From Vicugna vicugna (taxonomy: Eukaryota): 64,000 nucleotides of DNA. Made by a program: the position numbers and the translations under genes. Below the pieces are notes generated by a model. It made no database searches. It was not told the origin of the DNA and worked only from the letters and a program-made list of their open reading frames with translations. The stretch spans positions 7,207,779 to 7,271,778 of the forward strand of contig MU058198.1 of the NCBI GenBank assembly GCA_013265495.1, written 5' to 3'. Positions 6,001 to 62,976 of this stretch are shown one piece after another. The first letter of the stretch is position 1. Each line of letters opens with the position of its first letter.

Positions 6001-7657
6001 CACCTTAGGAGTGACTCAGGCCCCTGGAGGGAACTAGGAAAGAGTAAGCCAGGCTGAGGAGATGAGGAAATGGGGAAGAGGCCTCCCCCACCTCCTTTCC
6101 TTCAATGAAAACACAAGACTGCCTTTCTCTGTTTCACAGAGGGGCCTTGCCTTCAGAGTGTCCCCTCCATCCAGACATCCCCATCTCACCACCCTATCAG
6201 ACCAAGGGTTATGGGGAAGAGAAGGTGCCTCCATCCCTCCACACTTTCCCCCTAAGGCACCAAAGATCTCCACCAGAACCCCTGTCCAGCCAGCCCTCCA
6301 GAATATCTGGCCTGTGGCTGGAGTTGCCCATTGAAGAGCTGGGATACCTAAGATATCATCTCATTCAACCTTTCACCTCATAGAGGAGGACAGTGAGGCA
6401 GGGAAATGAGGAAGACACTAAGTCAAGGGCACACAACGCACCAAAAGCTTAAGCAAGGCTTAGGCTCAGATCCAGAACTCCAGACACCTGGTCTGAAACC
6501 CTAACACGCCAGTTCCAAAGAAACCTCAGGATGCTCTAGGCAAGACAGATTGCTAAGAAGCCCACTCCCACTAATCACCCCCTGGATCCTCAGAAGAGGA
6601 TAGGCTGCCAGAATATGGGCAAGGTGTATCATTTCCTCCTCCCCCAACCTCTGCTTCCCTGAAGCAGTCCTACTGGGTGCCCACTGGGTACTCACAGGCT
6701 GCCGGAATACTGGCTGCCCCCCAGGAAGCCATACTTGTCCGTCTTGCGCAGAGCCAGCCCATTTATCTCTGAGTCTGAGCCCATGGAGCTCACATCATCC
6801 GCCAAGGACTCTAAGGTCCCAGACATGAGGCTCACGGAGTCCAAGTAGCTCAGAGTGTCTGGGGCCTGCCCTCGAGGCCCAGAGATGCCAGGTCCCAGGC
6901 TGGACGTGGAGCCTAGGTCCTGAGAGTTTTCAGCAGGCTCTGGAGCTGGGGTCACGGTCACGACAGCTACCAGAGCCTCACATGTCCCTGGAGGGCCTGT
7001 TCCAGGCCCTGAGGGGTCCTCTGGAGCCTGTTCTGTTGATGCTGATGTTGCTGCTGCAGCTCCATGTCCACTTGTCACCTGTCCTGCTGTCACTGCTGCA
7101 ACCCGTGAAGTCACTCCTGAGGCCACTATGGTTCCCGACTTGGGGGCAAGCGGGGGTTTGGCGGTCAGGGCCCCAGGAGCCGTTCTGGAATAGGTCCTGG
7201 TGGGGTTCCCGGTAAGGGTACCTGGTCCAGGCGCGGGTGAGATTCCGGCCTCCTCCGTCTTTGGAGAGTCTGCCCCTGGCGCCAGAGCCTTAGACATCTC
7301 GGCTCCTGCCACAGCCTGGGGCGCCAAGGGCTCTGGGCCGGAGACCTGCGCCTTCGGGGCTTCGGGTGAGGCCTCCAGAGTCAGCACCACCACCGTGCTG
7401 CCTGTGACCGTCGGACCCGAGGCCGAGACCGAGGCCGAGGCCGAGGCCGAGGTCTGGGTTGGACCCGGTCCCCATGCGGGCAGCGCCTCCCCGGGGGCAA
7501 CCAGAGTGACCGGGGCCGAAATGGCCGTGGTCACTGGCGGCCCCGGAGCCACCACCACGACGGACCCAGCTCGGGAGCTGCGCGGCGGCGGCGAAGGGGC
7601 CGCGGGGGCGCCATGACGGCGCGGCGGGGCCACCAGAGGCGCCGGGCCGGTCTCCAT
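3042..7657 (-). CDS. TBC1D10B: TBC1 domain family member 10B (Rab GAP), 5' part; remaining exons lie left of the window
   Basis: Coding exons 7657-6696, 3757-3658, 3356-3249 and 3148-3042, all GT-AG and in phase. They give [12 protein letters not shown]...[69 protein letters not shown].../[26 protein letters not shown], containing the TBC IxxDxxR motif. Confidence 0.95.
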
Positions 7658-8800
7658 GGCCGCGGGCCGCCCCTCACATCCCCCCGCCGGGGCGGCCGCA
7701 AGAGGCGCCGCCCCTCAGGCCGCTCCGCGCCGCCAGCCGAGAAAGGGGAGAGGGCGAAGGGCGCGGCCCGGCGCGCGCTGGGGTCAGGGGCGGCGCGCGG
7801 GCAGCTGCCAAGCGCGCGGAGGCGGGGCAGGGGCCCGGGGATGCCAGGCGTCGGGGTCTCCCTCTCGCTTTCTCACCCGTCTCGATCTCTCGCCGCCGCC
7901 CCCTCCCTCCCGCTTCGGGCGAGCAGCCGACCTCGCGCCTGCGCATACGCCCCGGTGCCGGCCAAGCGGCCAGCGTTTCGGCGTTCCACGCCTGCGCGCG
8001 GGCGGTCCCATCGCGCTCCTTTTTCTTCCCGCCTCGTCAGAGGGCTCGGACGAATAATAGGAGAGAGGGAACCGGGTTTCTGCCAATCGTTGGAAGGGTG
8101 GGTGGGGTTGGAGGTGGGAAGGGGGTGGGTAATTTAGGAAGAGGAAACGGAGAAGGCGGAGGGCTATAAAAGCCAATGAGAGGGCGCGTGAAGGCAGGAG
8201 GAGGTGGAACGAAGGAAGTAACTAATAGCAAAGCGGGAAGCTTAACCTCCTGGCCAATAAAGATGGCTGAATAGTGAATGATGGCGGAAGGAGGCGGGTG
8301 CTGTGCGAGGAGAGGCAGGGCTGGCTCATAGGAATAATTAAAAGAGAGCCAATGAAAAGGGAAGTAGGCGGAGGTCAAATTGACAGACAGTAATGTCTAT
8401 TTAGGCAATGACAGACAGTATCCGCAGTCAATAGGAGCTGAGGAATTGAGGAATTCTTTAAGTCTCCCAAGAAGGTCAGGAAGAAATGACAGCTGAGGGG
8501 GGCGGGGGGCCAGGGCAAATTTGCGATTAATGTGCCTCAGTAGCCAATAAGCTCATTCTCTCACTTCAGCAACGGGAGGAAGATAGACAGCTGTATCAGC
8601 CAATGGCAGCCTCCAAAGGGTAGGGGCGCTGCCAGCAGGCGGTGCCAGCTCAGGGATATCTGTGACAATCCGAGACAAGCGCGGGAGAGGGGTGACAGTT
8701 GGGGACAGCGCGGAGAGAGGGCGGGGGCCGGGAGCATTGGTGTATTCCTTAGCCAATAAGAGCTCCGCGCTGCCCTGCCTGAGTCCTTTCTTGGTCCCCA
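7400..8800 (-). promoter_or_regulatory. TBC1D10B CpG-island promoter with NRF1-like motif and CCAAT-box array
   Basis: CpG-dense sequence around the ATG. GCGCCTGCGCA at ~7935. CCAAT at 8083, 8173, 8254, 8349, 8544, 8600 and 8753. Confidence 0.8.
7416..7452. repeat. Coding hexamer repeat (GGCCGA)n encoding a Ser-Ala dipeptide tract in TBC1D10B
   Basis: CCGAGGCCGAGACCGAGGCCGAGGCCGAGGCCGAGG, translating to [11 protein letters not shown]. Confidence 0.75.
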
Positions 8801-24700: not shown

Positions 24701-27569
24701 GGCCCAGACCCAGAAAAATCGGACATGAACTGTGCTACCGGGGAGAGAGGGGGAAGGGAGCAAAAGCCCAAGGAAGGAGCCAATGTTTCTGAGCACCTAC
24801 TACGCATCAGGTCACGAGGGGCATCATTTCAAGGACTTCCCCTTCCCGACAGGCATCACCATCCTCACTGCCTCTATCCTACTTCAGGCCTCATTCTGTC
24901 TAATCCTGGCAATTGCAGCAACCTCCCCTCAGCCCTTTTCTCTCTGTGTAGTCACACTGATCTAAGTCCAGATCTAATCCTGTCTCCCTTCACAAAAACC
25001 TTCCCTTGCTCCCTCTGCCTACTAATTAAAAACCTTAGCCTAGTGTTCAATTCAGAGGATACATGCTTAATCTAATTCCAGCATCCCTTTCCAGCTTTAT
25101 CTTCCATTCCTTTCCATGGTTTACTCTTTTCTATGCTGTGAAAGCCCAGCCCTATTTCCTCTCTGCTGTGACAGCACAGTTATTCTAAGCCTGCAATCAT
25201 AATTATTTGTGTTTTATCTCCTACCAACCCAAAGCATCTTGAGGAACAGGTGTGTGTCTGGGTCCTCTCAGGTACACACAAGATGATTGAGAAATAAATT
25301 ACAGGATGCGCTAATATAAAAAAGATATAATAGAATTAGCGAGTACTGGTTTTCCAAATAGAGACAATATAATGTAGGGCTTAACACAGTCTTGGGAATC
25401 AGACATACCCGAGTTAGAAACCTGGTTTTACTACTTTCTAACCTTAATAGCCTTGAGCTAGTGACTTAAATTCTCCAAGTCTCCCCATGTCTATAAAATG
25501 GGGATAGTAACAGTATTATCTCATAGGATTGTTCGCAAGGATTCAATAATGTTTAATTAAGTTATTGGCACATACGAAGGGCAATGGTAAAAAGAAGTTA
25601 CTGTTATTGAGAGGCACAGACAATATGTGCTTCAGAAATTCAGAGGAGCAAGAGCAAGAGAGATCCTTGTGACCACAGACTGTCAAGGACACCTTCTTGG
25701 GGAGGCTGCAGTGGAAGATAGGGCCTGAGCCAAAGGGCAGATCTGCAACTCCCTTTTCTTTCCCCAGGTCTAGGGAGTGAGAATGCAGAAATTTCTCAGC
25801 CAGATGAGTATGATCATGCCCCACAGGAGGATGACCTGGGGTTCAAGGAAGAGGAAGATTTGGCCCCAGGTCATGAAGTAGGAAATGCCTCTCTCAAACC
25901 CGAAGGCATCCAGACCTGGGATGACTTGTGGGTCCAGAGAGAGGGACCTGGAAAACCTCAGGCTCGGGACAGAGGCCCCCGGCTCCTCGGAGAACCACGC
26001 TGGGGCCAGGTTAGTGATCGGGCTGCTGTGTGTGGTGAGTGTGGCAAGAGTTTTCGGCAGATGTCAGATCTGGTGAAACACCAGCGGACCCACACAGGGG
26101 AGAAGCCCTACAAGTGCGGGGTCTGTGGCAAGGGCTTTGGGGATAGCTCTGCCCGGATCAAACACCAGCGAACTCATAGCGGTGAAAAGCCCTACAGAGC
26201 CCGACCTCCAGCCCAGGGTCCCCCAAAGATTCCTCGGTCCAGGATCCCTGCTGGTGAGCGCCCCACTATCTGCGGGGAATGTGGCAAGAGCTTCCGGCAG
26301 AGTTCTGACCTGGTGAAACACCAGCGGACACACACGGGTGAGAAGCCATACAAGTGTGGCATCTGTGGCAAGGGCTTTGGCGACAGTTCTGCCCGCATAA
26401 AGCATCAGCGGACACACCGAGGGGAGCAGCCCCCTCGGCCTGTGGTGTCCCGACGGCAGCCATCCCGAGCGGCCATGGCAGCTGCACAGGGACCTAAGGC
26501 CCAGGACAAGCCATATATCTGCACTGATTGTGGAAAAAGATTTGTGCTCAGTTGCAGCCTCCTGAGCCACCAGCGCAGTCACCTAGGGCCCAAACCTTTT
26601 GGCTGCGACGTGTGTGGAAAGGAATTTGCCCGGGGCTCAGATCTGGTGAAGCACCTGCGGGTGCACACAGGAGAGAAGCCCTACCTCTGCCCTGAGTGTG
26701 GCAAGGGCTTTGCTGACAGCTCTGCCCGGGTCAAGCACCTCCGTACCCACAGTGGTGAGAGGCCTCACGCCTGTCCGGAATGTGACCGCACCTTCAGCCT
26801 CAGCTCCACCCTTCTCCGCCACCGCCTCACTCACATGGAGCCCCAGGACTTCAGCTTCCCGGCCTCCCCTCTGGCCCCCCTGATCCCCAGCCCACCCCCC
26901 AGCTCAAGCCCACCTCCACCTCCCCTCGGCACCAGCCCCCCGCTGACGCCTCGAAGTCCTTCACACTCAGGTGATGGCCCTTTTGGCCTGCCTGGCTTGG
27001 AGCCAGAGCCTGGGGGCCCACAGGCTGGGGAGCCACCCCCACCACTGGCGGGTGACAAGCCCCACAAGTGCCCTGAGTGTGGCAAGGGCTTCCGCCGAAG
27101 CTCGGACCTGGTGAAACACCATCGCGTACACACGGGGGAAAAACCCTACCTCTGCCCTGAATGCGGCAAGGGTTTTGCCGACAGCTCGGCCCGAGTCAAG
27201 CACCTCCGCACCCACCGTGGTGAACGGGCTCGGCCACCACCACCATCCACTCTCCTGAGGCCACATAACCCCCCTGGCCCAGCACTCACAACCCCTCGAT
27301 CCCGAGTCCGGGCCCAGCCCTCCGGACCCAGCCAGCCCCATGTATGTGGCTTCTGTGGGAAGGAGTTTCCCCGGAGCTCAGATCTGGTTAAACATAGGCG
27401 AACACACACTGGGGAGAAGCCATACAAGTGTGCAGAATGTGGCAAGGGTTTTGGTGACAGTTCTGCCCGTATCAAGCACCAGCGTGGGCACCTGGTCCTG
27501 AGGCCCTTTGGGACAGGGGATGGTCGGGCAAGGCCCCTGAAAGAGGAGCCACCAACGGGACTAGAATGA
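24550..27569 (+). CDS. ZNF48: Zinc finger protein 48 (12 C2H2 fingers, no KRAB), 626 aa
   Basis: Exons 24550-24628 and 25768-27569. Protein MERAVGSWGPDL...GART/GLGSENAEISQ... joins in frame to ORF 25860-27569. Syntenic position matches. Confidence 0.93.
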
Positions 27570-38700: not shown

Positions 38701-39845
38701 CTCCCAATACAAGCACTCCTATCCATTCTCACTGAAAGCTGGAATTTTTTTTTTTTATTTAATGCTGAATCCCCAATGTCTAGAACAGAGTCTGGCACAT
38801 TGTACGCGCTCAATAAATACTGTATTAATAAAGAACAGCTAGAATGACACTAAGCATTGTGATGTGCGTTAATGGCTAATCTCACTTAACGCGCACAACC
38901 GTCCTAAGAGGCAGGCACCGTGGCATTTCCTACTTTACAAACGGGGACGGAGAGGTTGCAGCTTGCGGAGCCCCACGTTTCTGGCTCCCAGGCCTCTCGG
39001 TCAGGGCTGACCTGTCGCCCCTCTCCCCGCAGGTCCCGAGCGAGGCGCCAGCGCCGTCGGCCGACCCGGCGCGCCCACACGCGTGCCCGGACTGCGGCCG
39101 CGCCTTTGCGCGCCGCTCAACGCTGGCCAAGCACGCACGCACGCACACGGGCGAGCGGCCCTTCGCGTGCACCGAGTGCGGCCGGCGCTTCTCGCAGAAG
39201 TCGGCGCTGACCAAACACGGCCGCACGCACACAGGCGAGCGGCCCTACGAGTGCCCGGAGTGCGACAAGCGCTTCTCGGCCGCCTCGAACCTGCGGCAGC
39301 ACCGGCGGCGCCACACTGGCGAGAAGCCGTACGCATGCGTGCACTGCGGCCGCCGTTTCGCGCAGAGCTCCAACTACGCACAGCACTTGCGCGTGCACAC
39401 GGGCGAGAAGCCGTACGCGTGCCCGGACTGCGGACGCGCCTTCGGCGGCAGTTCGTGCCTGGCGCGCCACCGACGCACGCACACGGGCGAGCGGCCGTAC
39501 GCATGCGCCGACTGCGGCACGCGCTTCGCGCAGAGCTCGGCGCTAGCCAAGCACCGGCGCGTGCACACAGGCGAGAAGCCGCACCGTTGCGCCGTGTGCG
39601 GCCGCCGCTTCGGCCACCGCTCCAACCTGGCGGAGCATGCGCGCACGCACACGGGCGAGCGCCCCTACCCGTGCGCCGAGTGCGGCCGCCGCTTCCGGCT
39701 CAGCTCGCACTTCATCCGCCACCGTCGCGCTCACATGCGGCGCCGTCTGTATATCTGCGCGGGCTGCGGCCGGGACTTCAAGCTACCCCCTGGCGCTACA
39801 GCCGCCACTGCCACTGAACGCTGCCCAGATTGTGAGGGCAACTGA
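32782..39845 (+). CDS. ZNF771: Zinc finger protein 771 (acidic N-terminus, 8 C2H2 fingers), 317 aa
   Basis: Exons 32782-32922 and 39033-39845 (954 nt). Protein [18 protein letters not shown]...[26 protein letters not shown]...CPDCEGN*. AATAAA at 40076-40081. Confidence 0.94.
33890..33906 (-). promoter_or_regulatory. CTCF motif
   Basis: CCACTAGGGGGCAGC on the - strand matches the CTCF core consensus. Confidence 0.7.
34075..34300. mobile_element. MIR SINE (one of many; others at ~4090, ~4560, ~25370, ~35910)
   Basis: MIR core: TTACCAGCTGTGTGAACTTAGGCAAG...CTCTTTGTGCCTCAGTTTTCT...GTAAA. Confidence 0.65.
35610..35757. mobile_element. MER5A-like hAT DNA transposon fossil
   Basis: ATCACCCAGGGATCTTGTTAAAATG...GATTCAGTAGGTCTGGGGTGG...TTTTAACAAG...GATGCTGATGCTGCTGG...GGACCACACTT. 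Confidence 0.75.
37865..38830. mobile_element. Ancient L2 LINE fragments (approximate limits)
   Basis: Same L2 motifs (CTCTCTCCTGAGCTCCAGA, CAAAATATATCCAGAA, GCTCAATAAATAC). Confidence 0.55.
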
Positions 39846-46806: not shown

Positions 46807-47216
46807 TTTTCTTTTGTTTTCTTTTTTTTAATTTCTGAATTTATTTTACAATATCATATTTTTTAAAGTGAAGCATATTTGAGGTACAATATTATATGTT
46901 ACAGGTATACAATATAATAATTCACAATTTTTAAAGGTTATACTCCATTTATAGTTATTATAAAATATTGGCTATATTCCTTGTAAAATACATCCTTGTA
47001 GCTTTTTTTTAGCTTTATGTTTTATTTATTATTTAATTATTTTATTTTGGTCAGGGGAGGTAACTAGGTTTATTTGTTTTTAGAGGAGTTACTGGGGATT
47101 GAACCCAAGACCTCATGCGTGCTAAGTAAGCACTCTACCACTTGAGCTATACTCTCACCCCCCTTGTAGCTTACTTTATACCTGATAGTTTGTACCTCTT
47201 AATCCTCCACTTTCAT
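46807..47216 (-). mobile_element. L1 3'-end fragment with TSD, itself interrupted by a SINE
   Basis: Poly-T plus L1 3'UTR-like sequence, flanked by AGCAAGTGACATTT at 46793 and 47217. Confidence 0.75.
47005..47161 (-). mobile_element. tRNA-Ala-derived SINE (Vic-1-like)
   Basis: On -: GTATAGCTCAAGTGGTAGAG...TTAGCACGCATGAGGTCTTGGGTTCAATCCC plus an A-rich tail. TSD CCTTGTAGCTT at 46994 and 47162. Confidence 0.85.
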
Positions 47217-47971: not shown

Positions 47972-48066
47972 AGAGGGTGGGTATAGCTCAGTGGTAGAGT
48001 GTATGCTTAGCATGCACGAGGTCCTGGGTTCAATCCCTGGGACCTCCATTAAAAAATAAAATAAAT
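47972..48066 (+). mobile_element. tRNA-Ala(AGC)-derived SINE (Vic-1-like)
   Basis: GGGTATAGCTCAGTGGTAGAGTGTATGCTTAGCATGCACGAGGTCCTGGGTTCAATCCC...CTCCA plus an A tail. TSD TAAACAG[T/C]ACTTA. Confidence 0.88.
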
Positions 48067-53031: not shown

Positions 53032-53057
53032 TTTATTTCACTGGAAATCACTTTATT
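53032..53057 (-). terminator. SEPHS2 tandem polyadenylation signals
   Basis: AATAAA on - at 53057-53052 and 53037-53032, just 3' of the SECIS. Confidence 0.75.
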
Positions 53058-53121
53058 GATTAAATCACCAGGAATTTTCAGCACAAGATTTAACATCTTA
53101 ATGTCCACCAAGGCCTAGGCT

Positions 53122-53190
53122 CTGGGGCTTGCTCTGCCTCTCCCGGTCCTTAAAGGGGTTTAGAGGGAGAGACATCATTAACAGAGACCA
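53122..53190 (-). promoter_or_regulatory. SECIS element (type II) in SEPHS2 3'UTR
   Basis: mRNA GUUA-AUGA-UGUCUCUCCCUCU-AAA-CCCCUUUAAGGACC-GGGAGAGGC-AGAG. AUGA at 53178-53175, helix II GUCUCUCCC/GGGAGAGGC, AAA at 53161-53159, apical mini-stem CCU/AGG, and a 3' GA. Confidence 0.93.
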
Positions 53191-53760: not shown

Positions 53761-55119
53761 TCATGAGCTAGGCTCAGAGGAGGCACTGGCATTCTCAGGA
53801 ACAAGAGCAGTAGCAGTGGCCCCACGAGGTAGGACCTCAATGACTCGAGGCTTGTCAATGATCCGGGCGGTCCGGTTCCCCTTTTCCACAATGCCGACAA
53901 TCCATGCTTGGTGACCCTCTCCATACTTTGAAGATTTGATTTCAGAACAAAAGCGAGCTGCTTGTTCTCTTGGCAGACAAATCAGTAATCCCCCTGAAGT
54001 TTCTGCTGAGGTTCCTTGAAGGAGCCCAAAGCGCCCACTGGCTTTGCTGATGGCAGCCATCTTAGCAATAATTGGCAGATTATGAATGACAAAGGACACC
54101 TCATTTCTTTGTTGTTTTGCAAGGTTCTGAGAGTGTCCTAGAATGCCAAAGCCTGTGATATCAGTGGCTGCATGGGCATTAAACGTGTGCATTAATCCAG
54201 CAGCAGTTCTATTGAGGGTAGCCATATTGAACATGGCTTCCTGATAGGCCAGCTCTACCTCTTCTCTGGAGACCACCATCTTTATTTTATTCCATCTCTC
54301 AGGATTATCCAGCCATTGGTGGGCATTAACAGCAACTTGGGTTCCTAAGGGTTTGGTTAACACCAGCACATCCCCAACAACGGCACTGTCAGGCATTATG
54401 AATTCATTTGGCTGACATACCACAGTGGCAACTCCACCGACGATAATCCAAGGGTTTACTACCGTCTGCCCACCAGTCACTGCAGTCCCTCCTTCCTCTG
54501 CAGCGTCCCGAAAGCCTTTGATCATGAGTGGTGTTATCTTTTCTCGCTCCTCCTCAGTCATACTCTGGCTGACGCTGAGTAGCATCAACATGTTGTCACA
54601 TTCGGTAATGCCCATGGCGTAGAGGTCACTCAGCACGTTGGCACAAGCTATGCGCCCCATCATGTAGGGATCTTCCACCAAGGGGTAAAAGAAGTCCGTG
54701 GTCTGCACCAGGGAGAGGCCCCCGTGTCTCAGGGGTATGACACAGGAATCCAACCCAATGCCGAGGGTTGGAAGGGCTGGGCTGGGTTCCGCCCTAACCG
54801 GCAGGCAGGCTTCCTGGGCTGCCTCTTCTGGGCCTCCGACCAGGGTCCGGCCCAGCGGGGGCCGCACGTCTGGCCGCGTCAGTCCCGCCAGGAGTTTGAG
54901 CAGCGTCTCCTGGGGGACCTTGCAGCCTCAGCCCTTCATGCCAGAGAAGCCGGTCAGCCGCCAGCTCGGGCTTAGGCCCAACGCCTGGGGCTCGAAGGGC
55001 CGGTAGCTCGAGAAGCCTCGGCCTAGAGACAAACCCGCCGCGCCCGAGGAGCCTTCCCCCGCCGCCACCGCTGCCGCCATCGCCTCTCCGCCGGCGCCCG
55101 TTGCTGCGGCTTCCGCCAT
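53761..55119 (-). CDS. SEPHS2: Selenophosphate synthetase 2 (selenoprotein, Sec at codon 64), intronless CDS, 452 aa
   Basis: ORFs 54928-55122 and 53761-54867 are in the same frame, separated by TGA at 54930-54928 in [15 protein letters not shown]. SelD motifs [23 protein letters not shown] and ETSGGLL are present, as is a SECIS. Confidence 0.97.
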
Positions 55120-55199
55120 CACGCCTGCCCTGCAGGGAGGGGAAAGGAGGAGCGAGGACAGGAGATCCTTTTTACTTTCTACTCCAGTTAATAAAGAGT

Positions 55200-55450
55200 A
55201 AGTCAGATGTTACCGCAGAGATTTTCCCCGGCACAACTCTCACGGAAGGACTACTGCCACCCCACGCGCTCCTGGCGGTCCTGAAGGAGGAGCCTCTGGC
55301 CTCTCATATTTATAACCCTGGTGATTGACAGCTGTACCATCCAATGAGAACTTTGTCACCGAGGGGCGGGCTTCCTGCCGTCTAAAAGATGTATTACAAA
55401 TCAACCACCAGCTTCCGAAATTGGTCTCGGCAAGTTTACAGAACAAGTGA
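55200..55450 (-). promoter_or_regulatory. SEPHS2 promoter with PBX/PREP decamer + CCAAT + GC box
   Basis: TGATTGACAG at 55322-55331, CCAAT at 55341, GGGGCGGG at ~55363. TATAAAT on - at ~55313-55307. Confidence 0.6.
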
Positions 55451-60216: not shown

Positions 60217-60360
60217 GGGGGAGGGTATAGCTCAAGTGGTGGAGTGCATGGTTGGCATGCATGAGGTTCTGGATTGAGTCCCCAGTACCTCCTCTAAAAA
60301 TAAATAAATAAACCAACTTAATTACCTACCCCCCAAAATGAAATTAAAAAAAAAAAAAAA
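60217..60360 (+). mobile_element. tRNA-Ala-derived SINE (Vic-1-like)
   Basis: GGGGGAGGGTATAGCTCAAGTGGT...CCCCAGTACCTCCTCTAAAAATAAATAAA...CCCCCCAAAA plus poly-A. Confidence 0.85.
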
Positions 60361-61877: not shown

Positions 61878-61985
61878 TTTTTTTATAGACCACTTCACGA
61901 ATTTGCAAATCATCCTTGTGCAGGGGCGATGCTAATCTTCTCTGTATTGTTCCAGCTTTAGTATATGTGTTGCCAAAATGAGCAT
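61878..61985 (-). pseudogene. U6 snRNA retropseudogene (full length, diverged)
   Basis: On -: ATGCTCATTTTGGCAACACATATACTAAAGCTGGAACAATACAGAGAAGATTAGCATCGCCCCTGCACAAGGATGATTTGCAAATTCGTGAAG plus an A tail. The ACAGAGA box is intact, but there are many substitutions. Confidence 0.92.
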
Positions 61986-62884: not shown

Positions 62885-62976
62885 AATTGTTTTTAAAATG
62901 GAGGTACTGTGGGTTGAACTCTGGACCTCGTGCATGCTAAGCATGCGCTCTACCATTGAGCTATACCCCCACCCCC
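62885..62976 (-). mobile_element. tRNA-Ala-derived SINE (Vic-1-like)
   Basis: On -: GGGGGTATAGCTCAATGGTAGAGCGCATGCTTAGCATGCACGAGGTCCAGAGTTCAACCC. Confidence 0.85.

Follow-up and report, generated by a model that had tools for sequence, protein, structure and literature searches.

We identified a hairpin in the coding region of SEPHS2, which encodes selenophosphate synthetase 2, a few nucleotides downstream of the selenocysteine (Sec) UGA codon of this gene in the window (i.e., the whole stretch of 64,000 nucleotides of Vicugna vicugna DNA analysed here). Fold predictions and comparison with homologous sequences suggest that this hairpin is real and likely functional; it is probably the previously predicted SEPHS2 selenocysteine redefinition element (SRE), which would raise the share of Sec insertion over termination at the UGA. 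This reading is supported by the geometry of the hairpin, by its context in a SECIS-bearing selenoprotein gene, by synonymous constraint in distant homologues and by loss of the stem in non-UGA paralogues; the same observations support the proposal of a first-pass annotation of the window that the hairpin represents a second cis-element of the recoding system. While that annotation considered the element a candidate, the hairpin is already known and has been predicted in print since 2005 and 2015: Mariotti 2015 includes SPS2 among the selenoprotein genes with earlier-identified SREs, with attribution to Howard 2005 (PMC4561486). According to the same study, SPS genes present stable stems that begin 2-10 nt past the UGA; structures are given for non-bilaterian metazoa, basal bilateria, Vertebrata, Hymenoptera, and Drosophila, that of Vertebrata having been obtained by RNAz (Fig. 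SM6.2C; PMC4561486). Being in the same gene and at the same place, the hairpin in the window is almost certainly this published SPS2 SRE, as judged by its described position. Our analysis thus represents a confirmation and not a discovery, its additions being the register at base level, evidence that synonymous positions are constrained in distant homologues, and a small set of wobble sites. No mutational test of the SEPHS2 hairpin was found in the literature searched, which covered few subscription papers.

SEPHS2 in the window presented an intact frame with a single internal UGA, followed in the 3' UTR by a SECIS that scored just above the Rfam gathering score (Table 1); the C-terminal 245 aa of the predicted protein matched human SEPHS1 structures (E 2e-130). 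The placental SPS2-Sec gene has been described as the intronless form (PMC4561486). A processed pseudogene was considered and rejected, since the frame, the SECIS, the poly(A) signals and a TATA-like box are all intact, and since the gene is accompanied by a TBC1D10B-like and two C2H2 zinc-finger neighbours. We take these zinc-finger genes to be ZNF48-like and ZNF771-like, and together with the TBC1D10B-like exon they match the known gene order of the human SEPHS2 locus. The TATAAA box (55309-55314, minus strand) is located approximately 190 nt upstream of the SEPHS2 ATG; CCAAT-like motifs are present around 55341 and 55420, and two in-frame ATGs are found at codons 1 and 14. Two overlapping AATAAA hexamers were also identified inside the coding region (54281-54291, minus strand), where they encode W-N-K-I-K; these may be a mere consequence of the codons or may, if used, give rise to a SECIS-less transcript of the kind about which Mariotti 2015 speculates.

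Table 1. Features of SEPHS2, its hairpin and its neighbourhood in the window (positions counted from the first letter of the window).
Feature	Position	Strand	Basis or remark
SEPHS2 (selenophosphate synthetase 2) coding sequence, intronless, 452 codons + stop	53761..55119	-	one internal UGA, at codon 64
SEPHS2 start and stop codons	ATG at 55119; stop codon 53763-53761	-	reading frame
Sec UGA, context GMKG-U-GCKVPQ	54928..54930	-	sequence
Spacer GGCUGCAA, 8 nt (9 nt without terminal G-U pair)	54920..54927	-	sequence and predicted fold
5' arm GUCCCCCAGGAG, encoding Val-Pro-Gln-Glu	54907..54918	-	predicted fold; wobble constraint in homologues
12-nt loop ACGCUGCUCAAA, encoding Thr-Leu-Leu-Lys	54895..54906	-	predicted fold
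3' arm CUCCUGG-C-GGGAC, bulged C at 54887, encoding Leu-Leu-Ala-Gly-Leu	54882..54894	-	predicted fold
GCGGCC, predicted partner of GGCUGC (+1..+6; 54927-54922) in outer 6-bp helix	54872..54877	-	predicted fold
SECIS	53120..53186	-	Rfam RF00031, 35.5 bits vs gathering score 35, E 0.0022
Two AATAAA hexamers directly 3' of SECIS	53032..53057	-	likely poly(A) signals
TBC1D10B-like first exon	6692-7714	-	SEPHS2 neighbour
Two C2H2 zinc-finger exons	25722-27569; 38880-39845	+; +	SEPHS2 neighbours

The minus strand reads UGA GGCUGCAAG GUCCC CCAGGAG ACGCUGCUCAAA CUCCUGG C GGGAC from 54930 to 54882, as the first-pass annotation had given it, leaving the strand unstated, and the whole hairpin (54882-54918) is located inside the SEPHS2 frame (55119-53761), as also claimed. 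The predicted fold of the 37 nt agreed with the GC-rich stem of 7 bp plus 5 bp with one bulged C described in that annotation (-20.4 kcal/mol, ensemble frequency 0.89); only one of 200 dinucleotide shuffles was equally stable (z -4.27). The claimed distance of 9 nt from the UGA is correct if the stem is counted without its terminal G-U pair, but becomes 8 nt in the fold with flanks, in which G54919 may pair with U54881 to give 13 bp. When nucleotides +1..+8 after the UGA were held single, the inner stem was unchanged (-22.5 kcal/mol); a stable stem-loop (-20.4 to -22.5 kcal/mol) thus begins in the coding region 8-9 nt past the Sec UGA, inside the limit of approximately 10 nt expected of an SRE. 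In free RNA, nucleotides +1..+6 were predicted to form an additional outer 6-bp helix, with a total of -35.6 kcal/mol, or of -35.4 kcal/mol in the fold compared to shuffles, a value that none of 200 shuffles reached; a 111-nt segment including upstream sequence did not present an unusual fold (z -1.06). The outer helix was excluded from the element acting at decoding, since the listed homologues pair +1..+6 with varying partners, its register not being common to them, and since the inner stem is unaffected when +1..+8 are held single; presumably, the outer helix would not be able to form during decoding of the UGA. None of the six matches of an Rfam scan of the window at gathering score is located over the hairpin.

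The stability of the hairpin exceeds what is required by the encoded peptide. Synonymous recoding of SEPHS2 codons +4..+16 under three codon-usage nulls, with 3000 draws each, yielded mean energies of -7.4, -9.4, and -12.4 kcal/mol, compared to the observed -21.6 kcal/mol; p values were 0.0003 for the usage of the gene, 0.0023 for the usage of its GC-rich first 130 codons, and 0.026 for GC content matched per codon. Codons +1..+20 presented the lowest energy among the 218 twenty-codon windows of the coding region, as well as the lowest z under the gene-usage null, whereas with the GC-matched null two windows near 54141-54147 ranked ahead of them, leaving them in third place. These two overlapping windows (54088-54153, minus strand) showed a z of -3.7 under the GC-matched null and only -1.9 under gene usage, with 60 draws each, and their low z probably arose by chance among 218 windows.

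A search for the SPS motif with wobble positions left free found at least 116 metagenome loci, with 23 of 64 parts covered, and one locus in genome_contigs; no locus was found in the viral contigs. By residue at the Sec position, the 117 loci listed comprise 111 with UGA, four with Cys, one with Arg, and one with Thr. Flanks of these listed loci were identical to the window at no more than 75/120 nt, so that no vertebrate SEPHS2 could be recognised among them. In an initial pass, 22 of 118 records were removed because their frames fell short of 45 codons, and merging of duplicates left 78 distinct UGA loci; among these listed loci, 33/78 presented a z below -2 at codons +4..+16, compared to 5/154 control windows. 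The listed loci with both UGA and the LLxGL peptide, hereafter the hairpin group, comprise 49 records (window included) that form 28 clusters when clustered on their flanks alone.

Codon choice in the listed hairpin group was biased at the positions that form the stem. Val+4 is GUC or GUU in 28/28, Pro+5 is CCY in 25/28, and Gln+6 is CAG in 22/28; on the 3' side, all 19 of 19 Glu+14 codons are GAG, and Gly+15 is encoded by GGA in 25/28. Across 22 of the 28 genes, the background frequencies were 53% for GTY, 45% for GAG, and 31% for GGA. Gly+1, Leu+9, and Leu+16, with wobbles outside the stem, each present four to six different codons in the same listed loci. In 27 distant listed homologues, pairing was kept beyond the protein requirement, with a mean of 10.44 of 12 pairs as compared to 7.81 after synonymous recoding (maximum 8.70 in 1000) and a mean energy of -19.5 as compared to -7.7 kcal/mol. 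No such excess was found in 46 other listed UGA representatives (5.46 pairs observed, 5.60 recoded) or in five listed non-UGA genes (5.80 observed, 5.63 recoded); both of these recodings used the pooled codon usage of the hairpin group, and four of 50 other UGA genes had been dropped for table-1 stops.

With +1..+6 held unpaired, the spacer of the listed hairpin group is 8 nt in 17/28, 7 nt in 8/28, 6 nt in 2/28, and 13 nt in 1/28. Among the listed homologues, the loop differs, often in ways that lengthen the stem, and the bulge is displaced by 1-2 nt. Of 336 cells, 31 are G-U but only 12 are A-C, and in 20/28 of these listed sequences the sense strand folds more stably than the antisense strand, which points to a structure of the RNA strand. 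A structure linked to initiation was disfavoured, as the Sec codon is located approximately 24 to 66 codons past the upstream ATG in listed homologues; this test is weak since the stem is also tied to the peptide. The 3' half of the loop, CUC-AAA (54895-54900, minus strand), is common among the listed homologues (Leu+10 CUC in 12/16, Lys+11 AAA in 17/23), and could represent either a loop motif or an extension of the stem with Val+8, which is GUU in 12/13 of those listed. The Gly codon preceding the UGA is GGA in 23/28 listed hairpin-group genes (background 31%), in 28/50 other listed UGA genes, and in 1/5 listed non-UGA genes; in the window, it is GGC (54931-54933, minus strand). Readthrough is known to be associated with an A at -1 (PMC3159437), and GGA before the UGA may represent a second, upstream constraint that is missing in this mammal. 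An Rfam scan of 20 of the 117 listed loci yielded three SECIS_1 matches (L051, L054, and L014), all below gathering score; two of the three belong to hairpin-less genes, which hints that other SPS genes can do without the hairpin, although such weak matches offer no firm basis.

Formal covariation of the hairpin was modest. In the 28 listed sequences of the covariation set, 87.5% of cells pair, a level reached by 1/500 shuffles; eight cells carry changes on both sides and the covariation score is 0.174, values reached in 0/500 shuffles each. The measures least inflated by kinship, i.e., 3 pairs (46/500 shuffles) and 9 pair types (76/500 shuffles), were not significant. Sliding the register by -1 left the number of pairs (3) and the number of cells (8) unchanged, and one stem pair is present in only 13/28 sequences since the bulge moves. 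With RNAalifold, the register of the hairpin was recovered as a consensus of 9 pairs, with an energy of only -3.08 kcal/mol.

When 86 of the 118 records were placed in a tree from which the hairpin region had been left out, the window fell in a 41-tip clade (support 0.688), in which 25/26 of the listed UGA representatives presented a fold of -14 or lower, compared to 0/31 outside of it; the -14 cut-off was picked after the data had been seen, and the clade represents one origin and not 25 events. From its grouping with the window, we read this hairpin clade as mostly animals. Four SPS-UGA genes that branch at its base and are GC-rich with a short linker (L059, L067, L012, and L043) folded the same stem, at -19 to -21 kcal/mol in L059, L067, and L012; after codon control, these folds were not significant (z -1.3 to -1.9). 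If these four genes belong to unicellular kin of animals, the hairpin would be older than animals. Another observation concerns a eukaryote-type SPS-UGA gene (L117:390-458) found on a contig of a Verrucomicrobiaceae MAG; this contig is likely mis-binned, since the gene groups with eukaryotic sequences in the tree.

Among the listed loci, the stem is absent from UGA genes outside the hairpin group and degraded in the Thr and Arg paralogues, which are the only two informative non-UGA controls. The Arg (AGA) gene L034:443-505, located among hairpin-bearing UGA genes, presented -10.1, compared to -25.0 to -28.2 in three UGA neighbours; with a peptide nearly identical to that of these neighbours and a stem largely lost, it represents a natural loss-of-constraint control. 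The Thr gene L011, identical to human SEPHS1 over 47 aa, retains only 5/12 pairs (-5.5).

Several known elements resemble the hairpin. Like the SELENON (SEPN1) SRE, it is a coding-region hairpin that follows a Sec UGA by a few nucleotides, and in both cases the mRNA carries a SECIS as well; however, the SELENON SRE has a 16-bp stem, a 5-nt loop, and a 6-nt spacer (PMC3159437) and has been tested by mutations and patient alleles, whereas the hairpin in the window is a predicted one with 12-13 bp, a 12-nt loop, and a spacer of 8-9 nt. Pairing in SELENOT begins 8 nt past the UGA (PMC1440920), a spacer like the one found here, and SELENOP SRE1 enhances recoding at the first UGA of its mRNA; both are in different genes, and no sequence homology is claimed. 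The hymenopteran readthrough element (HRE) of SPS1-UGA is located in the homologous gene region and has been proposed to derive from the SPS SRE (PMC4561486). The HRE consists of a three-stem clover with the UGA at an apex, followed by GGGUGY, and has no SECIS; identity with it was ruled out, as the window presents a SECIS, GGCUGC in place of the GGGUGY hexamer after the UGA, and a UGA in a side helix and not at a loop apex in the wider (111-nt) fold. The bacterial SECIS (bSECIS) of selD, the gene for the orthologous enzyme, is also a hairpin directly 3' of a Sec UGA, and descent of the SPS hairpin from it has been hypothesised (PMC4561486). The bSECIS has a bulged U in its upper stem and an unpaired GU in a small apical loop, and binds SelB (PMC8704476, PMC4561486); with a bulged C and a 12-nt loop without GU, the hairpin in the window was ruled out as a bSECIS.

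By analogy with SELENON and SELENOP SRE1, the 8-nt spacer would fill the mRNA entry channel when the UGA is in the A site, so that the outer helix would be melted and the base of the inner stem would meet the unwinding site; a spacer of 8 nt has been suggested to set a structure at the ribosome unwinding site (PMC3159437). The inner stem might then hinder the release factor, or hold the ribosome during SECIS-SECISBP2-eEFSec delivery of the Sec-tRNA, and the contest would be tilted from the release factor toward the SECIS-delivered Sec-tRNA. The hairpin would act as an accessory enhancer, perhaps of approximately two-fold or less, and would be no substitute for the SECIS. SREs have been described as non-essential enhancers (PMC5727441, PMC8704476, PMC2248747), and mutations in SELENOP SRE1 lower recoding by 20-50%, with up to 50% for those in the lower stem (PMC5727441). 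The selenium donor on which all selenoproteins depend is produced by SEPHS2, which is a selenoprotein too; a cis-element tuning its UGA would therefore sit in a feedback loop spanning the selenoproteome. Synonymous variants in the arms would be candidate hypomorphic alleles, in line with SRE mutations in SELENON.

It appears very improbable to us that in this mammal the stem merely results from a GC-rich 5' region together with a conserved peptide (VPQE...LLxGL) whose codons are complementary by chance, or that it is a functionless vestige. The peptide alone does account for approximately 7.8 of the 12 pairs in the listed homologues, the GC-matched null was beaten only at p = 0.026, and two other windows of the coding region score as low; nevertheless, listed homologues on low-GC contigs (about 0.36-0.45 GC) keep the wobble-site pairs, the Thr and Arg paralogues lose the stem despite a similar peptide, and the excess of G-U over A-C cells and the more stable sense strand among listed loci also argue against it. 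We further consider it unlikely that the hairpin is a brake or pause element that slows ribosomes at or after the UGA, tuning mRNA decay or limiting SEPHS2 output. Mouse Sephs2 presents a disome peak at the Sec codon (10.1101/710061), failure of recoding leads to translation-dependent destabilisation of Sephs2 mRNA (PMC5397149), and the proximal stem-loop (PSL) of SELENOS inhibits recoding (PMC6844570). However, in the same preprint, disome sites were not strikingly associated with RNA elements (10.1101/710061), and the coding-region hairpins tested at such spacing, i.e., SELENON and SELENOP SRE1, stimulate recoding (PMC8704476, PMC5727441).

A role mainly in SECIS-independent readthrough by near-cognate tRNAs, yielding non-Sec SEPHS2, would mean that the ancestral dual role hypothesised by Mariotti 2015 is still active. 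In cells, readthrough is promoted by the SELENON SRE even when no SECIS is present (PMC4561486, PMC3159437), the related HRE is kept in the SECIS-less hymenopteran SPS1-UGA (PMC4561486), and the 8-nt spacer is that of viral and Drosophila readthrough stems (PMC3159437). Against this, the window presents GGCUGC and not the GGGUGY hexamer that Mariotti 2015 ties to non-Sec readthrough (PMC4561486), and Sephs2 recoding needs SECISBP2 and tRNA-Sec: translation past the UGA of Sephs2 is reduced in Secisbp2-deficient liver and further reduced in tRNA-Sec-deficient liver (PMC5397149), and SEPHS2 recoding is SECISBP2-dependent in HAP1 cells (PMC9599142), making such a role rather improbable. A more speculative reading, on which we would place little weight, is that of a bootstrap valve: when Sec-tRNA is scarce, a near-cognate tRNA (Cys, Trp, or Arg) would read the UGA without the SECIS, and the resulting non-Sec SEPHS2 would restart selenophosphate synthesis or do SEPHS1-like work. 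The stem would then have kept one fixed register from the origin of a single SPS clade, comprising animals and perhaps their close unicellular relatives, and would be strong enough to steer the residues of VPQE...LLxGL. Enhancement of Sec insertion by the published SRE remains our preferred reading.

Elsewhere in the window, a degenerate U6 copy (61879-61985, minus strand; Rfam match) is likely a U6 pseudogene, and four tRNA-like Rfam matches (47085-47156, 47977-48048, 60221-60293, and 62899-62970) are likely tRNA-derived SINEs. The stretch from 54600 to 55200 was present, in whole or in part, in 21 of 24 listed sequencing runs, with shares under 0.2 not counted as evidence; five runs of one organism, from two studies, presented shares of 0.85-1.00, and the best of these may be the source sample.
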